In this document: positions 6,163 through 35,167 of the stretch, one piece after another
Position numbering within the stretch: position 1 is the stretch's first letter
How the letters are laid out: every line of letters begins with the position of its first letter
Source: Candidatus Dojkabacteria bacterium
GTDB lineage: Bacteria > Patescibacteriota > Dojkabacteria > SC72 > JAHDCA01
Assembly (NCBI GenBank): GCA_030583845.1
Contig: CP129478.1
Span: forward strand, 843,686 to 907,685
Direction: 5' to 3'
Length of the DNA: 64,000 bases
Made by a program: the position numbers and the translations under genes
Notes under the pieces: model-generated
Database searches by the model: none
Told to the model about the DNA's origin: nothing
The model's input: only the letters and a program-made list of their open reading frames with translations

Positions 6163-6549
6163 TGGCTCTGCGGGAAGGATTCGAACCTTCAACCCACTGG
6201 TTACACGTACTCCTCATATTTCTATGAGGCGTGGACTATCTCATCGCCATTGCTATTAGCATTAGGCGCAAGGCACTTCCCACACGTAGTAAAACTACGA
6301 GCAGTACGAGCATCGCTCTAGTCTCTGAACCTTCCCTTTCAGTTGCCTGAAGTTGGGCTAGGCTGCGGATTTCCATTACCTCTTATCATGTCTACCGTCG
6401 AGTAGACGAGGGTTAGGGTTCCCGCAATTCACCTTGTTATACATCTAGCGCTTTCGCGCTAAAGCTGCCGTAAACCTGCGTGGATTTCTCTCAAAACCCA
6501 CACACGTGTTAATGAACAGCCAGTTGCTCTACCATTGAGCTACCGCAGA
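6163..6549 (-). tRNA. tRNA (most likely Asn-GUU; Thr-UGU alternative) interrupted by a group I intron in the anticodon loop
   Basis: 5' exon TCTGCGGTAGCTCAATGGTAGAGCAACTGGCTGTT and 3' exon AACCAGTGGGTTGAAGGTTCGAATCCTTCCCGCAGAGCCA fold into a full cloverleaf with a 7-bp acceptor, D-arm, anticodon stem ACTGG/CCAGT, T-arm GAAGG-TTCGAAT-CCTTC and encoded CCA. U1-A72 and discriminator G73 favour Asn. Confidence 0.7.
6203..6514 (-). ncRNA. group I self-splicing intron (IC3-like), ~312 nt, no ORF
   Basis: Group I core elements in RNA sense: P-like AAUUGCGGGAA, Q-like AAUCCGCAGCC, R/P7 GGUUCAGAGACUAGA and S/P7' GAGAUAGUCC. Exact splice junctions are ambiguous by a few nt (after U33 or after U35/U36). 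Confidence 0.65.
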
Positions 6550-6719: not shown

Positions 6720-7301
6720 ATGTTCAGAAAATACCTAGCCGCCCTTTTTGTGACAGCGTTTGTAGCACTATTTAGCGTTACTACTGTTTTCGCACAAGAT
6801 ACAGAAGAAACACTTGACGTTGAGACGACCGATGAAAGTGCTGCAACTGAAGTCGAGAACGGTGGATTGCCAGAGCAGACCTTCCTTATCTACGTACATG
6901 AAGATTGCCCTCACTGCCAGAGAGTTGAAGCATTTGTTGAAGAGCAGGGGATACAGGACCAGGTAGAATATGTGGAGCTAAAGAATAACCAGGAGAATAT
7001 GGATGCGCTTCAAGCTGAATGGGAGAAATTTAATGTGCCTACAAGTGATCAAGGATGGCCGTTTATGGTTTATGAAGATGAGAACGGTGATGAGACCTAC
7101 GCGACCGGTGACGAGCCAATTATCCAGATCTTGAGCCAGTACAACGGTATCCCATACACAGCTCCTGATAATGGAGAGGATACTACTACATCTGATTCGC
7201 CTAGTGGTGGGTTGGGTGACAGCGTATTCCTAGTGTTAGGAGGAGTTGTACTGATGTTCATCGTCGGCTACGGAGTGTATTCAGCTGCTAGCAAGAAATA
7301 G
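6720..7301 (+). CDS. secreted or membrane-anchored thioredoxin-fold protein (CPHC active site)
   Basis: N-terminal signal peptide, an acidic linker, a CPHC redox motif and a C-terminal hydrophobic anchor. Confidence 0.5.
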   Translation: MFRKYLAALFVTAFVALFSVTTVFAQDTEETLDVETTDESAATEVENGGLPEQTFLIYVHEDCPHCQRVEAFVEEQGIQDQVEYVELKNNQENMDALQAEWEKFNVPTSDQGWPFMVYEDENGDETYATGDEPIIQILSQYNGIPYTAPDNGEDTTTSDSPSGGLGDSVFLVLGGVVLMFIVGYGVYSAASKK

Positions 7302-7374: not shown

Positions 7375-8199
7375 GTGTTAAACATGTATATGGAAAGAAC
7401 ACGTTTTGCGGCCGTTGCAGGACAATTTTACCCTTTGGATCCGGCCGAACTTGAGGGCTCAATAGCAGATATGCTCGACCCTTCAGCTGAAGATATCATT
7501 GATAGCCGGAGATTCAAGGCATTTATACTTCCACACTCCAGCTATAAGCAGTGTGGCGTGGTGATGGGTGCAGGATATGCCAAGCTGCTTGAAAGAGAGA
7601 TAGATGAGGTATTTGTGATGTCAGGCACACATTTCCATCAAGCAGAAGGCGTCATAATGTCTGACTTTAGCAGGTGGGAGACGCCTTTGGGCTATGTTGA
7701 GGAATCACATAGGCGGAATCAGATCGCCGGCTCGGATGATTCAGCGGCTCAAAACCTTATACAGCAAGACAATGATCCATTCGACGGCGAGCATGCAATC
7801 GAGGTGCATCTTCCTGTGCTGCAGTATCTGTGGGGTGAAGAGTTTAGATTCTTACCACTGATTATTGGCAAGGGTAGCCCGAGGCTTGCAGCAAATAGCT
7901 TGGTCAAATTTATTGACCCTGATGATTTGATCATATGCAGCAGCGAGCTTTCGCACGGATATCCAGCAGACTACGCTAAGGATATAGACAAGCGAGCGAT
8001 TGATTCGATACTGAAGCTCGATGTCGATGCTATCTTGCACGACTCATTTAAGGCGTTCTCTATAAATTCAATAGCCACTCTCGTCGAGATTGCTAGGCTG
8101 AAAGTATGGAAAGCGGAGCTATTGATGTATAAAAACTCATCTGAGTTTGTCAAAAATGACAGCAAAACCTCCGGCTATGTTGCGATTGGCTTCTACTGA
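7375..8199 (+). CDS. Memo-like protein (AmmeMemoRadiSam system protein B, MEMO1 family)
   Basis: AVAGQFYP near the N-terminus and the EHAIEVHLPVLQY metal-binding motif of the Memo family. Likely start at the MERTRF Met (~7390). Confidence 0.7.
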   Translation: MLNMYMERTRFAAVAGQFYPLDPAELEGSIADMLDPSAEDIIDSRRFKAFILPHSSYKQCGVVMGAGYAKLLEREIDEVFVMSGTHFHQAEGVIMSDFSRWETPLGYVEESHRRNQIAGSDDSAAQNLIQQDNDPFDGEHAIEVHLPVLQYLWGEEFRFLPLIIGKGSPRLAANSLVKFIDPDDLIICSSELSHGYPADYAKDIDKRAIDSILKLDVDAILHDSFKAFSINSIATLVEIARLKVWKAELLMYKNSSEFVKNDSKTSGYVAIGFY

Positions 8200-8233
8200 T
8201 AGAGCCAAGCCGGCTCTCTGTGTATAATCCGGT

Positions 8234-9127
8234 ATGGTTAAGAAATCTCGATATTACAAGAATGCTGAAGGTGGCGAAATAATTTCGCTGGTTGACCCAT
8301 TTAATGAAATTGTTAAAGATGGCGAGGTCGATTCATCGGGTGTGAGACTTAATCAGGGCGGAAAGTTAATGCAGCTCAACTATGGGCAGATTGTGCTGAT
8401 AAAGAAATTAAAGCTTCGTGAATTTCTCATTAACCACCATGATGAAGAGTGTATAGCCGTAACCATGATAGGAAACAATCTTCGCATTACCTATGACCAG
8501 CAGTGGGGCACGTCGCAATATGCCACTGTAGCGCAACAGGAATGGGGTAGGGCAGCTGCAAATAAGAAAGTCGCATCAATTGGCAGCTACTACTCACCAG
8601 AAGCGCTAGTCGAGTACGCTCATGCATCCAACGTTCGCAATATCTTCTTTATGGGGTTTGAACCCACAAGCTGTTGGGACTATGTCTCGGATGTCTCAGA
8701 AGTAGCTAAAGATAAGGAATTAAAAGTTGGAGTGATCACGCATGGCTATTTCTCGGAAATGGTCTGCAGGGAAATGACCACACAGCTCAGTTATATTGTG
8801 TATCAGCTCGACTCGCTCCAATCCTTTTTCATGAAAAAGCATCTTAAAGCCAACCTAGAAATCATAACATCGAACATAGAGCGTAGCTTCAAGTCAATCG
8901 CTCATCTAGAGCTCTCAACCTATTTTATTCCTGGAGAAAATGACACCATGCATGATATAAAGCTCTTCATAAAAGTCATTAAATCACTGGACAAGAAGGT
9001 GTCGTGGCAGCTTAGGCGATTCTTGCCAGAGTACCGCGTGCTGGATAAGCCTGTCACGTCGGATGAAAAACTTCGTCAGATATGTGAAGCAGCTCGTGCC
9101 GAGGGAATTGATGTTAAGGTAGTGTAA
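8234..9127 (+). CDS. AmmeMemoRadiSam-type (PflA-like) radical-SAM homologue lacking the CxxxCxxC cysteines (putative pseudoenzyme)
   Basis: Family-like blocks SRYYKNAEGG (ARYYEKLEDG), FMGFEPT (FTYNEPT) and a PFL-AE-like C-terminus RRFLPEYRVLDKPVTS...EGIDVKVV. The cluster motif GCNLRCxYCQNW reads GNNLRITYDQQW, so all three Cys are absent. Confidence 0.55.
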   Translation: MVKKSRYYKNAEGGEIISLVDPFNEIVKDGEVDSSGVRLNQGGKLMQLNYGQIVLIKKLKLREFLINHHDEECIAVTMIGNNLRITYDQQWGTSQYATVAQQEWGRAAANKKVASIGSYYSPEALVEYAHASNVRNIFFMGFEPTSCWDYVSDVSEVAKDKELKVGVITHGYFSEMVCREMTTQLSYIVYQLDSLQSFFMKKHLKANLEIITSNIERSFKSIAHLELSTYFIPGENDTMHDIKLFIKVIKSLDKKVSWQLRRFLPEYRVLDKPVTSDEKLRQICEAARAEGIDVKVV

Positions 9128-9202: not shown

Positions 9203-9616
9203 ATGGACGATCGCATCAAGATTACATTTAACAATATGGAGCCGTCGGACGCCCTCAAAGAGTACCTAAATGAGAAGATATTAAAGCATAAGAGTGAGCA
9301 TCTCTTAGAGAAAATGACCATGGCAGAAGTGCATCTGACCGAGAATGTGCATGCAAAGGGTGTTGATAAGGACTTTCAGCTAGATATCAATGTTGATGTC
9401 CCTGGAAATAGAGTCCATGTAGAAGCAGCTGGAAGCGACATGTATGCGTTAGTTGATGAGGCAACGGATAAGCTTTTCAGAGTGTTGCAGAAAAATAACG
9501 ATAAACAGAAGAAGAGTGAAGGCTCGACACCTTGGAGGGTGTTAGAAGCAGAAGCAGCTGCAGAAGCGATGAAGGCTGATGTTGACGACGATGATGAATA
9601 TGCTGGTGTCGAATAG
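9203..9616 (+). CDS. hpf: ribosome hibernation promoting factor (HPF/RaiA, S30EA family)
   Basis: IKITFNNMEPSDALKEYLNEKI...HVEAAGSDMYALVDEATDKLFRVLQK matches the HPF/YfiA fold. Acidic C-terminal tail. Confidence 0.75.
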   Translation: MDDRIKITFNNMEPSDALKEYLNEKILKHKSEHLLEKMTMAEVHLTENVHAKGVDKDFQLDINVDVPGNRVHVEAAGSDMYALVDEATDKLFRVLQKNNDKQKKSEGSTPWRVLEAEAAAEAMKADVDDDDEYAGVE

Positions 9617-33500: not shown

Positions 33501-33884
33501 ATGACGCCGCTCTACTTCTCTCCTATATATGCCGGATTCCCCGGGATAGTAGAAGAGGTGGTGGAGAAGAAGCTCGATCTTAATGAGTTCCTCATTAAAA
33601 ACCCTGAGGCAACATATTTCCTGAGAGTTAGCGGGGATTCAATGGTTGGAGCTGGTATCTACAATGGAGATCTTCTTATCGTGGACCGGTCGCAAGCCGT
33701 AAAGAGCGGTGATATCATCATTGCCTCTATAAATGGTGAGTTCACAGTCAAGCGATTGGAAAAGAAAGGAGATCGCTTCTTGTTGTTACCAGAGAATTCC
33801 CGATACAAATCTATGATGATCCATGAAGAAGATGACTTCCTCTCATGGGGTAAGGTTATCTACGTGATCCATCAGGCCATATGA
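33501..33884 (+). CDS. umuD: UmuD-like S24 peptidase (translesion polymerase accessory subunit)
   Basis: VSGDSMVGAGIYNGDLLIVD catalytic block. 127 aa, immediately upstream of and overlapping the Y-family polymerase gene. Confidence 0.75.
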   Translation: MTPLYFSPIYAGFPGIVEEVVEKKLDLNEFLIKNPEATYFLRVSGDSMVGAGIYNGDLLIVDRSQAVKSGDIIIASINGEFTVKRLEKKGDRFLLLPENSRYKSMMIHEEDDFLSWGKVIYVIHQAI

Positions 33885-35167
33885 GGAGCATAGGCCTAGT
33901 TGATTGCAACAACTTTTTCGTATCGTGCGAACGGGCGTTTAACCCGAAATTTAAAGATAGACCCGTCTTAGTCCTCTCCAATAACGACGGGTGTGTTGTT
34001 GCACGCTCCAATGAGGTGCGGCAGCTCAATATCCCGATGGGCGTGCCGTACTATCAGGTGGAAGCATTGGTGAAGAAGCATAATGTGAAGGTATTTTCGT
34101 CGAACTACCCCCTCTATATAGATATGTCGCGCAGAGTTTTGCGGATATTGAAGAACCGCATCCCGAAGGTGGAGTTTTACTCTATAGATGAGGCGTTCCT
34201 CGACCTTGAGGGCTACAATCCGCAACAGATTGGTGCTCAGATGAGATCTCTGCGGGCAGATATACTTACTTGGACCGGTATACCAGTCTCTATTGGCGTG
34301 GCTGCTACGAAAACTCTCGCGAAGATAGGCTCGGAGGTGGCAAAGAAAAACCCGGAGCTAGGCGGCTGTGTAGATTTCGGCAATATGACACACGAAGAGC
34401 AGGATTGTGTGCTGGAGAGCTTGCCTGTCTCGGAGGTGTGGGGAGTCGGCAGGCAGCTCTCCAAGAAATATGAAAAGATTGGTGTAGATAGTGTGTTGGA
34501 TCTCAAAAGAATGGACGGAAAAACAGTGCGCAAAATGGCTACCGTGGCTGGGTATCGCACCTGGCTTGAGCTAAACGGCACGCGCTGCTTCGAGGTGCAT
34601 CAAGACCATTCATATAGGGAGAGCATTGCCTACACCAGGTCGTTCGGATATAAAGTAACTCGGAAAGAGGAGATCCTTGAGAGTGTTGCTTTCTATGCTG
34701 CAAGCGCTAGCGAGAAGCTGAGGAGGCAGGGATGCGCAGCCAGCTCGATGTATCTTTTCCTCATCATTAAGAATTCGCAAGAGTCGCAGCATAAATACTC
34801 GACGCTCTATAAGAAGGTGAATTTTCAGATGCCCTCTTTCGAGACTCAAGATATAGCCGCATATGCCACTCAGGCGGCCTCTGAGATCTTCCGACCAGGT
34901 TATAGATATAAAAAAGCAGGAGTGTGTTTATACAATATTGTGCCTTTAGACAGCCTACAGCTTCAGCTTTGGGGTAGGATCTCAAGTGAGGAGAGTGTTG
35001 CAAAGAGAATTAATCTAAATAAATATATAGATAGTATAAACTTGAAATGGGGGCGAGGTGCTGTAAGAATAGCATCGGAAGGAGTAGGTCATCGGTGGAA
35101 GATGAAATCAGAAAGCCGCTCGCCATCCTACACTACGGAGTGGAATGAGCTTCTTACAGTAAGCTAG
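33881..35167 (+). CDS. umuC: Y-family DNA polymerase (UmuC/DinB-like)
   Basis: N-terminal GLVDCNNFFVSCE and SIDEAFLD catalytic motifs. 428 aa. Confidence 0.85.
   Translation: MRSIGLVDCNNFFVSCERAFNPKFKDRPVLVLSNNDGCVVARSNEVRQLNIPMGVPYYQVEALVKKHNVKVFSSNYPLYIDMSRRVLRILKNRIPKVEFYSIDEAFLDLEGYNPQQIGAQMRSLRADILTWTGIPVSIGVAATKTLAKIGSEVAKKNPELGGCVDFGNMTHEEQDCVLESLPVSEVWGVGRQLSKKYEKIGVDSVLDLKRMDGKTVRKMATVAGYRTWLELNGTRCFEVHQDHSYRESIAYTRSFGYKVTRKEEILESVAFYAASASEKLRRQGCAASSMYLFLIIKNSQESQHKYSTLYKKVNFQMPSFETQDIAAYATQAASEIFRPGYRYKKAGVCLYNIVPLDSLQLQLWGRISSEESVAKRINLNKYIDSINLKWGRGAVRIASEGVGHRWKMKSESRSPSYTTEWNELLTVS

Follow-up and report, generated by a model that had tools for sequence, protein, structure and literature searches.

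A radical-SAM-fold protein without cluster cysteines, encoded beside Memo in a Dojkabacteria genome

What defines a radical SAM enzyme is its [4Fe-4S] cluster. The closest described relatives of the protein analysed here are the TIGR04337 enzymes of the AmmeMemoRadiSam system, in which Memo is protein B and AMMECR1 is protein A, and, in structure, PFL-AE (PflA; 3C8F, 3CB8 and 8FO0). D129 of PFL-AE helps to coordinate a K+ ion, which in turn contacts the carboxylate group of SAM (PMC10267522). In human MEMO1, the C244 residue is essential for Fe/Cu binding, and the C244S mutant binds no iron (PMC11081632). The HemW/HemN-like heme chaperones are a precedent for the radical-SAM fold in a non-radical, ligand-handling role, but HemW, unlike the protein described here, keeps the CxxxCxxC motif and the cluster, which is required for heme transfer (PMC10114718). 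HemW also falls in a different radical SAM subgroup (HemN-like), and a heme-related context is absent around the gene described here. In the literature we found no description of a cluster-less AmmeMemoRadiSam radical SAM variant, and such a variant of this known family appears to be undescribed.

We analysed a 64-kb stretch of Candidatus Dojkabacteria DNA (the window), in which an initial annotation had proposed a radical-SAM-like ORF next to a Memo gene. The ORF list bore out the coordinates of both ORFs (Table 1). The Memo assignment was upheld by matches to Pfam Memo (PF01875, 1e-34) and, over the full length, to TIGR04336 (152 bits, cutoff 26); the NCBI start of this gene lies at 7390, giving a protein of 269 aa. 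The TIGR04337 profile matched residues 6-293 of the 297-aa protein with E=1e-21 and 77.2 bits, below the cutoff of 220, and covered profile positions 2-279 of 349. It was the best-scoring family and the match was nearly full-length, so the proposed AmmeMemoRadiSam homology stands, though as a divergent one. Pfam Radical_SAM (PF04055, cutoff 29.5) matched with 30.1 bits, for residues 121-240 only, downstream of the Cys motif, and a PDB sequence search with the single protein gave chance-level matches only. The alignment also confirmed the family-specific blocks that the initial annotation had named: FMGFEPT aligned with the canonical YTYxEPT, and the C-terminal RRFLPEYRVLDKP aligned with RFxPxYKMxDxxxTP. 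The N-terminal Y-x-K-x-x-G is shared with the TIGR04337 enzymes as well, as are G-x-N in the cluster loop, SQ, ExP, NGY, FY, IPxxND and RFxPxY..D...T. These results show that the ancestor of the ORF was an AmmeMemoRadiSam radical SAM enzyme of the short type (~300 aa), which resembles PFL activase.

Table 1. Features of the locus, with positions in the window
Feature	Position	Strand	Basis
Glutaredoxin (Grx)-like protein; CPHC motif, N-terminal hydrophobic signal/anchor, C-terminal hydrophobic segment	6720..7301	+	Pfam Glutaredoxin, 26.4 bits
Memo (AmmeMemoRadiSam protein B), 274-aa ORF	7375..8199	+	Pfam, TIGR04336, NCBI name
Cys-less radical-SAM-fold protein, 297 aa	8234..9127	+	NCBI QY318_03930, 'hypothetical protein'; ORF call, TIGR04337, AF2, fold matches
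Former N-terminal Cys4 (CxxCxxxC...C), now S18, D21, E25, S35	8285..8338	+	Family alignment
Former cluster motif G80-N81-N82-L-R-I85-T-Y-D88-Q-Q-W91 (GNNLRITYDQQW)	8471..8506	+	Alignments, DNA read directly
E143-P144, equivalent of the GGE motif (PFL-AE G77-G78-E79), retained	8660..8665	+	Family conservation, PFL-AE mapping
Q191-L192-D193-S194, equivalent of the canonical D-L-K-S strand (PFL-AE D129/K131)	8804..8815	+	Alignment, PFL-AE mapping
HPF, ribosome hibernation factor, short form, 137 aa	9203..9616	+	Pfam and TIGR00741 matches, synteny

In the alignments, the former cluster motif fell exactly on the GCNxxCxxCQNW motif of canonical members, which the profile alignment places on C29/C33/C36 of PFL-AE. 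The results showed that all three Cys are gone, replaced by N81, I85 and D88. The initial annotation had recognized this loss and read the first two replacements correctly, but gave the third as Tyr, off by one position. The former Cys codons are AAC (8474-8476), ATT (8486-8488) and GAC (8495-8497), each of which requires two substitutions to reach TGY, and the Cys-less state recurs in independent assemblies. A sequencing error or frameshift whose correction would restore the motif is therefore ruled out.

The N-terminal Cys-rich zinc-ribbon had been described as lost too, and the family alignment agreed: its four columns are 95-96% Cys in canonical members (n=91), whereas all four are other residues in the window protein, and among the Cys-less members the first three positions keep Cys in 4 of 20 and the fourth in 3 of 20. 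The four Cys of the window protein (73, 147, 178 and 284) are not conserved, with at most 6 of 20 members having Cys in any column of the family alignment, and five Cys-less members contain only one Cys over their entire length; an alternative Cys triad, which the annotation had not seen either, is thereby ruled out. Within the 64-kb window, which represents ~6% of the genome, we found no second radical SAM paralogue of this family. A general shortage of Fe-S proteins in the genome would be a conceivable cause of the losses; the proteome of the window has a Cys content of 0.68%, and none of its proteins contains CxxxCxxC. The functional definition of a radical SAM enzyme includes three Cys, in a CxxxCxxC or equivalent motif, as ligands of the SAM-binding [4Fe-4S] cluster, and the 297-aa protein has none of the three. 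It follows from established radical SAM chemistry that without these Cys there is no site-differentiated [4Fe-4S] cluster, and hence that the protein is incapable of reductive SAM cleavage and radical chemistry.

An exhaustive search of representative proteins gave 2154 matches, 30 of them below 1e-30, and revealed a Cys-less family. Twenty of the top 35 matches were Cys-less representatives, and at least 20 protein clusters (50% identity) carry GNNxRxT[FY]DxxWD. A word-indexed protein search with the family profile returned only 7 proteins, and the family patterns found no relatives in scans of the GTDB species genomes and JGI metagenomes; with a basal-subgroup pattern, the GTDB scan found one Dojkabacteria MAG. 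All three Cys-less members with an organism name belong to Candidatus Dojkabacteria. With the Cys columns masked, the 20 Cys-less proteins and the canonical P0013, P0018 and P0020 formed one clade in 170 of 200 bootstraps, and the Cys-less set alone was monophyletic in 11 of 200. A single clean Cys-loss event is thus unsupported, and one to three losses inside this clade are possible.

The AF2 model of the 297-aa protein was obtained with a pLDDT of 97.3 and a pTM of 0.93. Its top PDB matches were all radical SAM enzymes, the best of them the PFL-AE entries 3C8F, 8FO0 and 3CB8 (target-normalised TM 0.78-0.81; for 3C8F, TM 0.81, E=6e-12 and rmsd 2.7 A). The predicted structure shows that the radical-SAM partial (beta/alpha)6 TIM barrel has been kept, and with it the fold that belongs to the definition of these enzymes. 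The motifs of PflA, the best structural match, align one-to-one with the family profile, but the sequence identity is 11-12% only, C29/C33/C36 correspond to N/I/D, and ~60 additional residues form a beta-rich N-terminal domain in the window protein.

We then compared the SAM-binding motifs at the sequence level, taking in the GGE-type, ribose, beta-5 and beta-6 motifs and, as in PFL-AE-like enzymes, the D...D cation site and the DLK strand. The cluster-independent parts of the SAM/nucleoside site are kept: E143-P144 (E143 invariant and P144 95% conserved in the Cys-less family), N/H170-G171-Y172, I232-P-x-E-N-D237 and F263-x-P265. The equivalents of PFL-AE D129 and K131, by contrast, are gone, with Q191 in place of the K+ ligand D129 and D193 in place of K131, the DLK-strand Lys found in 100% of canonical members. 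Residue 170 is H in the window protein and N in the family. Judged from these motifs, the SAM site itself is probably damaged, by the loss of the DLK Lys and the cation-site Asp and by the replacement of the family N with H170. The window protein differs from the TIGR04337 enzymes further in having lost the DPIEKKPLxHF loop conserved in canonical members and a His that is 95% conserved there (Q259 in the window protein), in lacking the C-terminal CxxC...CxxC extension present in 74% of canonical members, and in having an extra insertion of 8-10 residues.

In the Cys-less family alignment, 11 columns are invariant and a further 16 nearly so; many of these are clade-specific. The clade-invariant polar residues are D88, W91, R106, S194, K202-H203-x-K205, E235 and D271-K272, which form a defined set for testing. 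D88, at the position of the third Cys, is 90% conserved in the Cys-less family, while at the second cluster-ligand position the residue is hydrophobic and differs between members (I, L, V, T, P, W and others); R106 sits in the clade-specific insertion. The clade-invariant residues align with PFL-AE active-site motifs or directly follow barrel strands in the model, their placement in a pocket being derived from PFL-AE motif homology and from strand ends in the predicted secondary structure. On the active-site face, these newly invariant polar residues are no less compatible with a remodelled pocket than with an inert scaffold.

The window Memo keeps the equivalents of the MEMO1 residues H49, H81, H131, E134 and H192, has E in place of D189, and has Phe in place of C244. 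In its H49/H81/C244-type triad, both His are thus present and the Cys is replaced. All canonical prokaryotic Memo proteins used for comparison have the C244 equivalent (11 of 11 controls), whereas it is absent in 9 of 9 Dojkabacteria-type Memo proteins, which have F, T, V or S. In these nine, D189 is E throughout and the H81 equivalent is lost in three. The Dojkabacteria-type adjacent Memo proteins contain 0-4 Cys, none of which is conserved.

The Grx-like gene opens a conserved same-strand gene string, and most related loci, also those whose radical SAM gene is canonical, have a homologue of it (164-202 aa) upstream. In all Dojkabacteria-type loci on contigs that continue beyond the radical-SAM-like gene (X), the next gene downstream is HPF; the conserved context of X is Grx-like-(Memo)-X-HPF. 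The nearest Cys-containing relatives (P0013 and P0018), from sister lineages, occupy the same slot upstream of HPF (Grx-like - X - HPF - SurA - M23 - FtsX - FtsE - RF2), and they are therefore positional orthologues of the Cys-less proteins. In the window, Memo and X are on the same strand with a spacing of 34 nt (1 nt in locus L016). The Memo pairing proposed by the initial annotation holds for the window and 8 further sampled loci (one inferred from the P0010/P0160 pair), and in all sampled Memo-bearing loci the two genes are on the same strand, 1-48 nt apart. It does not extend to the basal Cys-less P0014 and P0021 or to the canonical P0013 and P0018, which are located between Grx-like/CofD and HPF with no adjacent Memo, so that the pairing is limited to a subclade and Memo is not obligatory. 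Like the annotation, we found no AMMECR1 nearby: in the 64-kb window, the sole tblastn match of four AMMECR1-Memo fusion proteins was the Memo gene, and the AMMECR1 Pfam family is not listed in any Dojkabacteria-type locus retrieved. Synteny across the group extends through RF2 and iPGM, and gene adjacency is thus weak evidence of a functional link here.

Between the compared genomes, the radical-SAM-like proteins are 54% identical and the Memo proteins 73%. The pN/pS of the radical-SAM-like gene was 0.28 (29.5 nonsynonymous and 29.5 synonymous differences; P=3.8e-6 versus neutrality), compared with 0.01-0.06 for the neighbour genes and 0.01 for Memo. These results show that the gene is under purifying selection, which is relaxed relative to its neighbours.

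The reading that we favour, with a probability of roughly 0.4-0.5, is that the 297-aa protein serves as a subunit for ligand binding or non-radical catalysis, using a pocket that has been remodelled and holds no cluster, together with an iron-free Memo in the window's subclade. The cluster-independent parts of the SAM/nucleoside site would have been kept, and the gain of clade-invariant polar residues would have produced a remodelled pocket on the old active-site face. In the window's subclade, the protein would work with the presumably co-transcribed Memo; because this Memo lacks the equivalent of C244, which is needed for Fe/Cu binding, a normally iron-dependent Memo/radical-SAM pair may have been converted to an iron-free form. 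In favour of this reading count the motif mapping, the predicted fold, the size of the Cys-less family, the positional orthology, the purifying selection, the clade-specific residues, the loss of the Memo ligand and the tight gene spacing. Against it stand the damage to the SAM site, the relaxed selection and faster divergence of the protein compared with Memo, the basal members and canonical orthologues that lack an adjacent Memo, and the region-wide synteny. The pair would then be a natural metal-free version of a still-uncharacterised Memo/radical-SAM system whose human homologue, MEMO1, is iron-binding. A selected clade that has the barrel but no cluster ligands suggests that the radical-SAM fold can be reused beyond radical chemistry.

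The initial annotation had called the protein a conserved, full-length, cluster-less pseudoenzyme with a possible scaffold role. Its conservation, length and lack of cluster were all found as described, and the term pseudoenzyme applies in the sense of the loss of radical chemistry. A pure non-catalytic scaffold or regulator, in which the barrel would partner Memo only structurally or allosterically, with no ligand-pocket function, is somewhat unlikely. It would account for the absence of any cluster ligand, DLK Lys or cation-site Asp, for the relaxed constraint and faster evolution than the neighbours, and for the tight coupling to Memo in 9 sampled loci (the P0010/P0160 pair inferred). However, the invariant residues are polar or charged and lie at PFL-AE active-site positions (D88 at Cys36, S194 beside K131, E235 in the beta-5 loop), and an outer-surface placement is not obvious; moreover, the cluster-independent SAM-site motifs are retained and basal members persist without an adjacent Memo. 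The remodelled pocket also has a more specific form, which we regard as unlikely: the pair would be a naturally iron-free, re-engineered metalloenzyme module, in which the barrel, with a new active site (D88, R106, K202, H203, K205, E235, D271 and K272), would take SAM or a related nucleoside as its ligand and, with the iron-free Memo, catalyse or gate a step of non-radical chemistry. If true, the PFL-activase branch would gain its first radical-SAM-derived non-radical enzyme, and Memo action without metal could be studied in a natural experiment.

It is improbable, if less so than the readings discussed below, that the protein has a function independent of Memo, either as a member of the Grx-like - X - HPF neighbourhood or as a merely syntenic gene, beside which Memo was inserted in one subclade. 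The canonical P0013 and P0018 and the basal Cys-less P0014 and P0021, which sit between Grx-like/CofD and HPF without Memo, are consistent with this, as is the presence of HPF wherever the contig reaches that far. But the closest relatives of the protein are the very enzymes that define the Memo-associated AmmeMemoRadiSam system, the two genes are tightly adjacent on one strand in all sampled Memo-bearing loci, and both proteins have lost Cys metal ligands in the same lineage. Since the synteny extends through RF2 and iPGM, the HPF adjacency is no stronger evidence than the Memo adjacency.

The many lost canonical motifs, the pN/pS above that of the neighbours and the long branches might also point to a decaying relic, i.e., a gene heading for loss once Fe-S and radical chemistry had become dispensable. 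This is very improbable, as in 20 clusters the ORFs have remained intact at full length even where identity falls to 26%, pN/pS is significantly below 1, the invariant and nearly invariant columns are numerous and often clade-specific, and the predicted fold is very confident. Asp is able to ligate Fe-S clusters in some proteins. A protein that is still a radical SAM enzyme, with its cluster on non-Cys ligands (Asn/Asp) or supplied in trans by a partner, might draw on this, on the conservation of D88 and on the N-terminal Cys4 motif kept in four basal members, but it is scarcely credible given the hydrophobic, variable second ligand position, the five members with one Cys in total, the lack of conserved Cys in the adjacent Memo, and the loss of the residues by which SAM is positioned on the cluster, at the cation site and in the DLK strand.

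Family members carry the JGI name 'pyruvate formate lyase activating enzyme'. The 297-aa protein scored 28.8 bits against TIGR02494 (glycyl-radical enzyme activases, PFL-AE family), below the cutoff of 174, and a glycyl-radical enzyme, the substrate of PflA, was not evident among the window ORFs examined. Together with the missing cluster ligands, these results indicate that the name is a misannotation. Automated 'radical SAM' and 'pyruvate formate-lyase activating enzyme' calls of this kind overstate the Fe-S and radical capacity of reduced CPR genomes.

The 1.04-Mb contig that carries the window belongs to a MAG of Candidatus Dojkabacteria (CPR); NCBI names the rSAM-like protein there 'hypothetical protein QY318_03930' and the Memo next to it 'AmmeMemoRadiSam system protein B'. 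ORF calls returned the Memo and rSAM-like frames at the coordinates proposed in the initial annotation. TIGR04337, the radical SAM model of the AmmeMemoRadiSam system, aligned over nearly the full length of the 297-aa protein as expected (residues 6-293, E=1e-21), though its 77 bits stayed below the cutoff of 220; Pfam Radical_SAM covered residues 121-240 alone, a stretch C-terminal to the Cys motif (30.1 bits, cutoff 29.5). The protein lacks what defines a radical SAM enzyme (the Cys triad, CxxxCxxC) and stays short of the TIGR04337 cutoff (220 bits). The most fitting class for it is a new variant of that family, descended from it but cluster-less. The absence of a nearby AMMECR1 gene was borne out for the 64-kb window, which likewise contained no second rSAM of the TIGR04337-like family. 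Promoter and terminator scans gave match numbers at or below chance expectation, and no terminator-like site interrupted the four-gene string Grx-like/Memo/rSAM-like/HPF.

Features of the window and the matches that define them
Feature	Position	Strand	Remarks
Group I intron, complete	6212-6503	-	Rfam RF00028, 70.8 bits, E=3e-17, model positions 1-253
Glutaredoxin (Grx)-like gene	6720-7301	+	5' of Memo; strand shared with Memo, rSAM-like and HPF
Memo ORF	7375-8199	+	Pfam Memo 1e-34; TIGR04336 152 bits, cutoff 26
rSAM-like ORF	8234-9127	+	297 aa; TIGR04337 match; gap to Memo ORF 34 nt
HPF gene	9203-9616	+	3' of rSAM-like ORF, strand shared
Y-family DNA polymerase	33881-35167	+	IMS, IMS_C, DUF4113; UmuC/DinB-like; 8 Cys

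Profile alignment placed the GCNxxCxxCQNW motif on C29/C33/C36 of E. coli pyruvate formate-lyase activating enzyme (PFL-AE), and alignment with canonical, triad-bearing relatives showed that G80-NNLRITYDQQ-W91 of the window protein falls exactly on this motif. The triad is replaced by N81, I85 and D88; the first two substitutions had been read correctly, but the Y named as the third is the preceding residue. The codons at these positions (AAC, ATT and GAC) need two changes each to reach a Cys codon. The N-terminal Cys-rich motif is gone as described, with S18, D21, E25 and S35 at four columns that are 95-96% Cys in 91 canonical sequences. An alternative triad is excluded, in line with the initial annotation, because five Cys-less members have one Cys in the whole protein; none of the window protein's own Cys (73, 147, 178 and 284) is conserved in the family. 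The Cys content of the window proteome is 0.68%, and ten ORFs scanned, mostly the Cys-richest of the window (~6% of the genome), gave no match to Fe-S protein families. The Y-family polymerase, also among the Cys-richest, is unrelated to the Cys-less rSAM finding.

The same loss was found in related proteins, making this a family rather than an isolated case. A profile search run exhaustively over 1.84 billion representatives gave 2154 matches; the triad was scored in the best 150, among which 20 representatives (50% identity) lacked it and had the consensus G-N-N-[LM]-R-x-T-[FY]-D-x-x-W-D in common. All three organism-named members are Candidatus Dojkabacteria, to which the family is so far confined. 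Core-clade pattern scans of the GTDB species representatives and of metagenome contigs from JGI found no relatives, which marks the family as rare in both. JGI/IMG automatically names four Cys-less proteins (P0006, P0008, P0011 and P0014) 'pyruvate formate lyase activating enzyme', which cannot be right because the cluster ligands are missing. Four basal triad-less members (P0014, P0021, P0023 and P0025; loci L006, L010 and L015) retain the N-terminal CxxCxxxC...C, a pattern that suggests stepwise loss.

The AlphaFold2 model of the rSAM-like protein (77-sequence alignment) reached pLDDT 97.3 and pTM 0.93, and its best PDB matches were all rSAM folds, as anticipated for a retained barrel: Foldseek ranked PFL-AE on top (3C8F, 8FO0 and 3CB8; E=6e-12, target-normalised TM 0.78-0.81, rmsd 2.7-3.1 A), followed by RlmN, NifB, viperin, MoaA and other rSAM enzymes. 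We then compared the residues of the 20 Cys-less and 91 canonical sequences. Besides the triad, the family has lost the DPIEKKPLxHFxPG loop, both charged residues of the D-L-K strand (the Lys, 100% in canonical sequences, is D193 here and the Asp is Q191) and a His conserved at 95% (Q259), and 16 of the 20 members have lost the N-terminal Cys4; there is no C-terminal CxxC...CxxC extension, a state shared with the short canonical forms. Kept residues are G80, N82, S94-Q95, E143-P144 (the GGE equivalent), N170-G171-Y172 (H170 in the window; aligned to PFL-AE T105-N106-G107), F199-Y200, I232-P233-x-x-N236-D237, F263, P265 and T275. Invariant or nearly so in the Cys-less clade only are N49, D88 (where the third Cys would stand), W91, R106 (within a clade-specific insertion), G117, F139, S194, K202, H203, K205, E235, D271 and K272. 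In rSAM barrels the active site is built on the face following strands beta-1 to beta-6; the modelled secondary structure puts these clade-specific invariants mostly in loops or helix starts after the same strands, and they would thus lie mostly on the former active-site face. D129 of the PFL-AE DLK strand is one ligand of a K+ that also touches the SAM carboxylate (PMC10267522); with the Asp and Lys of this strand lost, the SAM-positioning apparatus has therefore gone along with the cluster.

As proposed, the rSAM-like protein is conserved, full-length and cluster-less and descends from an rSAM enzyme of the AmmeMemoRadiSam type (20 representatives, confident rSAM fold); it is also under selection (pN/pS 0.28), and from the established mechanism radical SAM chemistry is impossible for it. 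We infer that it would act through a remodelled, cluster-free pocket, by ligand binding or non-radical catalysis, because new invariant polar residues stand in what were active-site motif positions, the SAM-site motifs that do not depend on the cluster are retained and selection is purifying.

The pairing with Memo stood for nine Cys-less members (the window protein, P0002, P0003, P0004, P0006, P0008, P0009, P0011, and P0010 with P0160, the last a putative pair), in which Memo lies directly upstream on the same strand at a spacing of 1-48 nt; it did not extend to the basal P0014 (Grx - rSAM-like - HPF) and P0021 (CofD / rSAM-like - HPF), which have no adjacent Memo. Taken with the N-terminal Cys4 kept by the basal members, these arrangements hint that the triad was lost first and the Cys4 next, adjacency to Memo being a trait of the derived clade. 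A new finding is that the Memo partner too has lost its Cys metal ligand. The comparison took in 8-9 Memo proteins of the Dojkabacteria type, over 100 canonical prokaryotic ones and human MEMO1, whose reference past residue 190 we take to be correct (residues 7-190 match the PDB alignment, and the numbering of H49, H81, D189, H192 and C244 fits). The Cys matching C244 is present in 100% of the canonical set, but the nine Dojkabacteria-type proteins all replace it with F, T, V or S, the window's with Phe. All nine also have Glu for D189; the H81 equivalent is lost in 3/9 and the H192 equivalent in 2/9, and one of these Memo proteins is entirely free of Cys. Human MEMO1 binds Fe/Cu at a site formed by H49, H81 and C244, and iron binding is abolished in its C244S and H49A mutants (PMC11081632). 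Judged by these residues, canonical metal binding by Dojkabacteria-type Memo is very improbable; in one subclade, a Cys-less rSAM is paired with a Memo without its Cys ligand. That the rSAM-like protein is a pure scaffold for this neighbour is possible but doubtful, the adjacency standing beside the polar invariants at former active-site motif positions. A role independent of Memo, to which the loci of P0014 and P0021 would correspond, appears unlikely, set beside the nine pairs.

Synonymous sites were saturated in most pairs, and the sole informative one was L001 versus L003 (92% identical). The rSAM-like gene had 29.5 nonsynonymous and 29.5 synonymous changes (pN/pS 0.28, P against neutrality 3.8e-6), Memo 1 and 35 (0.01, 6.8e-23) and HPF 4 and 22 (0.05, 3.5e-12); RF2 gave 0.06. 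The value of the rSAM-like gene, against 0.01-0.06 in its neighbours, indicates purifying selection with clearly relaxed constraint. No other gene of the block evolves as fast: window and L001 share 54% identity in the rSAM-like protein, 73% in Memo and 65% in HPF. A decaying relic, in keeping with this speed, is nonetheless highly improbable under such selection, and a cluster held by non-Cys ligands such as an acidic residue at the third Cys position is hardly credible at all. Memo is under the tightest constraint in the block, indicating that the Dojkabacteria-type protein is functional.

Wherever contigs reach, we found a conserved block, DUF218 or CofD / Grx-like - (Memo) - rSAM-like - HPF, with SurA-like, M23, FtsX, FtsE, RF2 and iPGM beyond HPF on the opposite strand. 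The nearest Cys-containing relatives, canonical P0013 and P0018, occupy the same slot (CofD / 164-167 aa ORF - rSAM - HPF - SurA-like - LTD, no Memo), so the Cys-less proteins are positional orthologues of the canonical short rSAM enzyme. At these canonical loci SurA-like has Pfam support in L012 only, where the block continues past LTD with M23, FtsX, FtsE, RF2 and iPGM; the small ORF 5' of rSAM in L013 is weakly Grx-like. In a neighbour-joining tree with Cys columns masked, 170/200 bootstraps grouped the 20 Cys-less proteins with canonical P0013, P0018 and P0020, and 11/200 recovered the Cys-less set alone, whose monophyly is unsupported because P0014 pairs with P0020. One to three triad-loss events are possible on this tree. 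The Grx-like protein of the window carries a CPHC motif and begins with a hydrophobic signal/anchor; an acidic linker of low complexity and a hydrophobic C-terminal segment complete it, and from this layout it is probably extracytoplasmic. Its homologues in L001, L003-L006, L011, L013 and L016 lie directly 5' of the Memo or rSAM(-like) gene, canonical-rSAM loci included. HPF is short in the window and L002 (137-139 aa, PF02482 only, acidic tail) and long in L001, L003, L006, L010-L013 and L016 (188-204 aa, C-terminal PF16321 domain). On the P0018 contigs, CofD (L013 6448-7442) and HPF (L014 6208-6779) are each split into two adjacent ORFs, probably by frameshifts or assembly errors of the Logan assemblies.

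A literature mention credits the Memo, AMMECR1 and radical SAM system to Burroughs et al. 2019. In the literature searched, 'AmmeMemoRadiSam' occurs as an annotation label only. The 2019 work of Burroughs and colleagues reportedly tied the contexts of Memo to the modification of nucleotide bases and isoprenoids, a link that was not proven by experiment. Searches on radical SAM pseudoenzymes, CxxxCxxC-less inactive homologues and Dojkabacteria radical SAM proteins returned no account of such a protein, consistent with the initial view that it was undescribed. The nearest functional precedent is HemW, a heme chaperone with the rSAM fold (PMC10114718), which retains its cluster, unlike the Dojkabacteria protein.

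The group I intron lies in an ORF-free gap 5' of the Grx-like gene, and its flanks (to about 6549 and 6163) are the halves of a tRNA broken in the anticodon loop. ARAGORN missed this split gene on unspliced DNA and accepted the cloverleaf obtained by splicing the RF00028 flanks in silico, for which the most plausible reading is tRNA-Asn(GUU) interrupted by an intron of ~312 nt, the exact junction being ambiguous.
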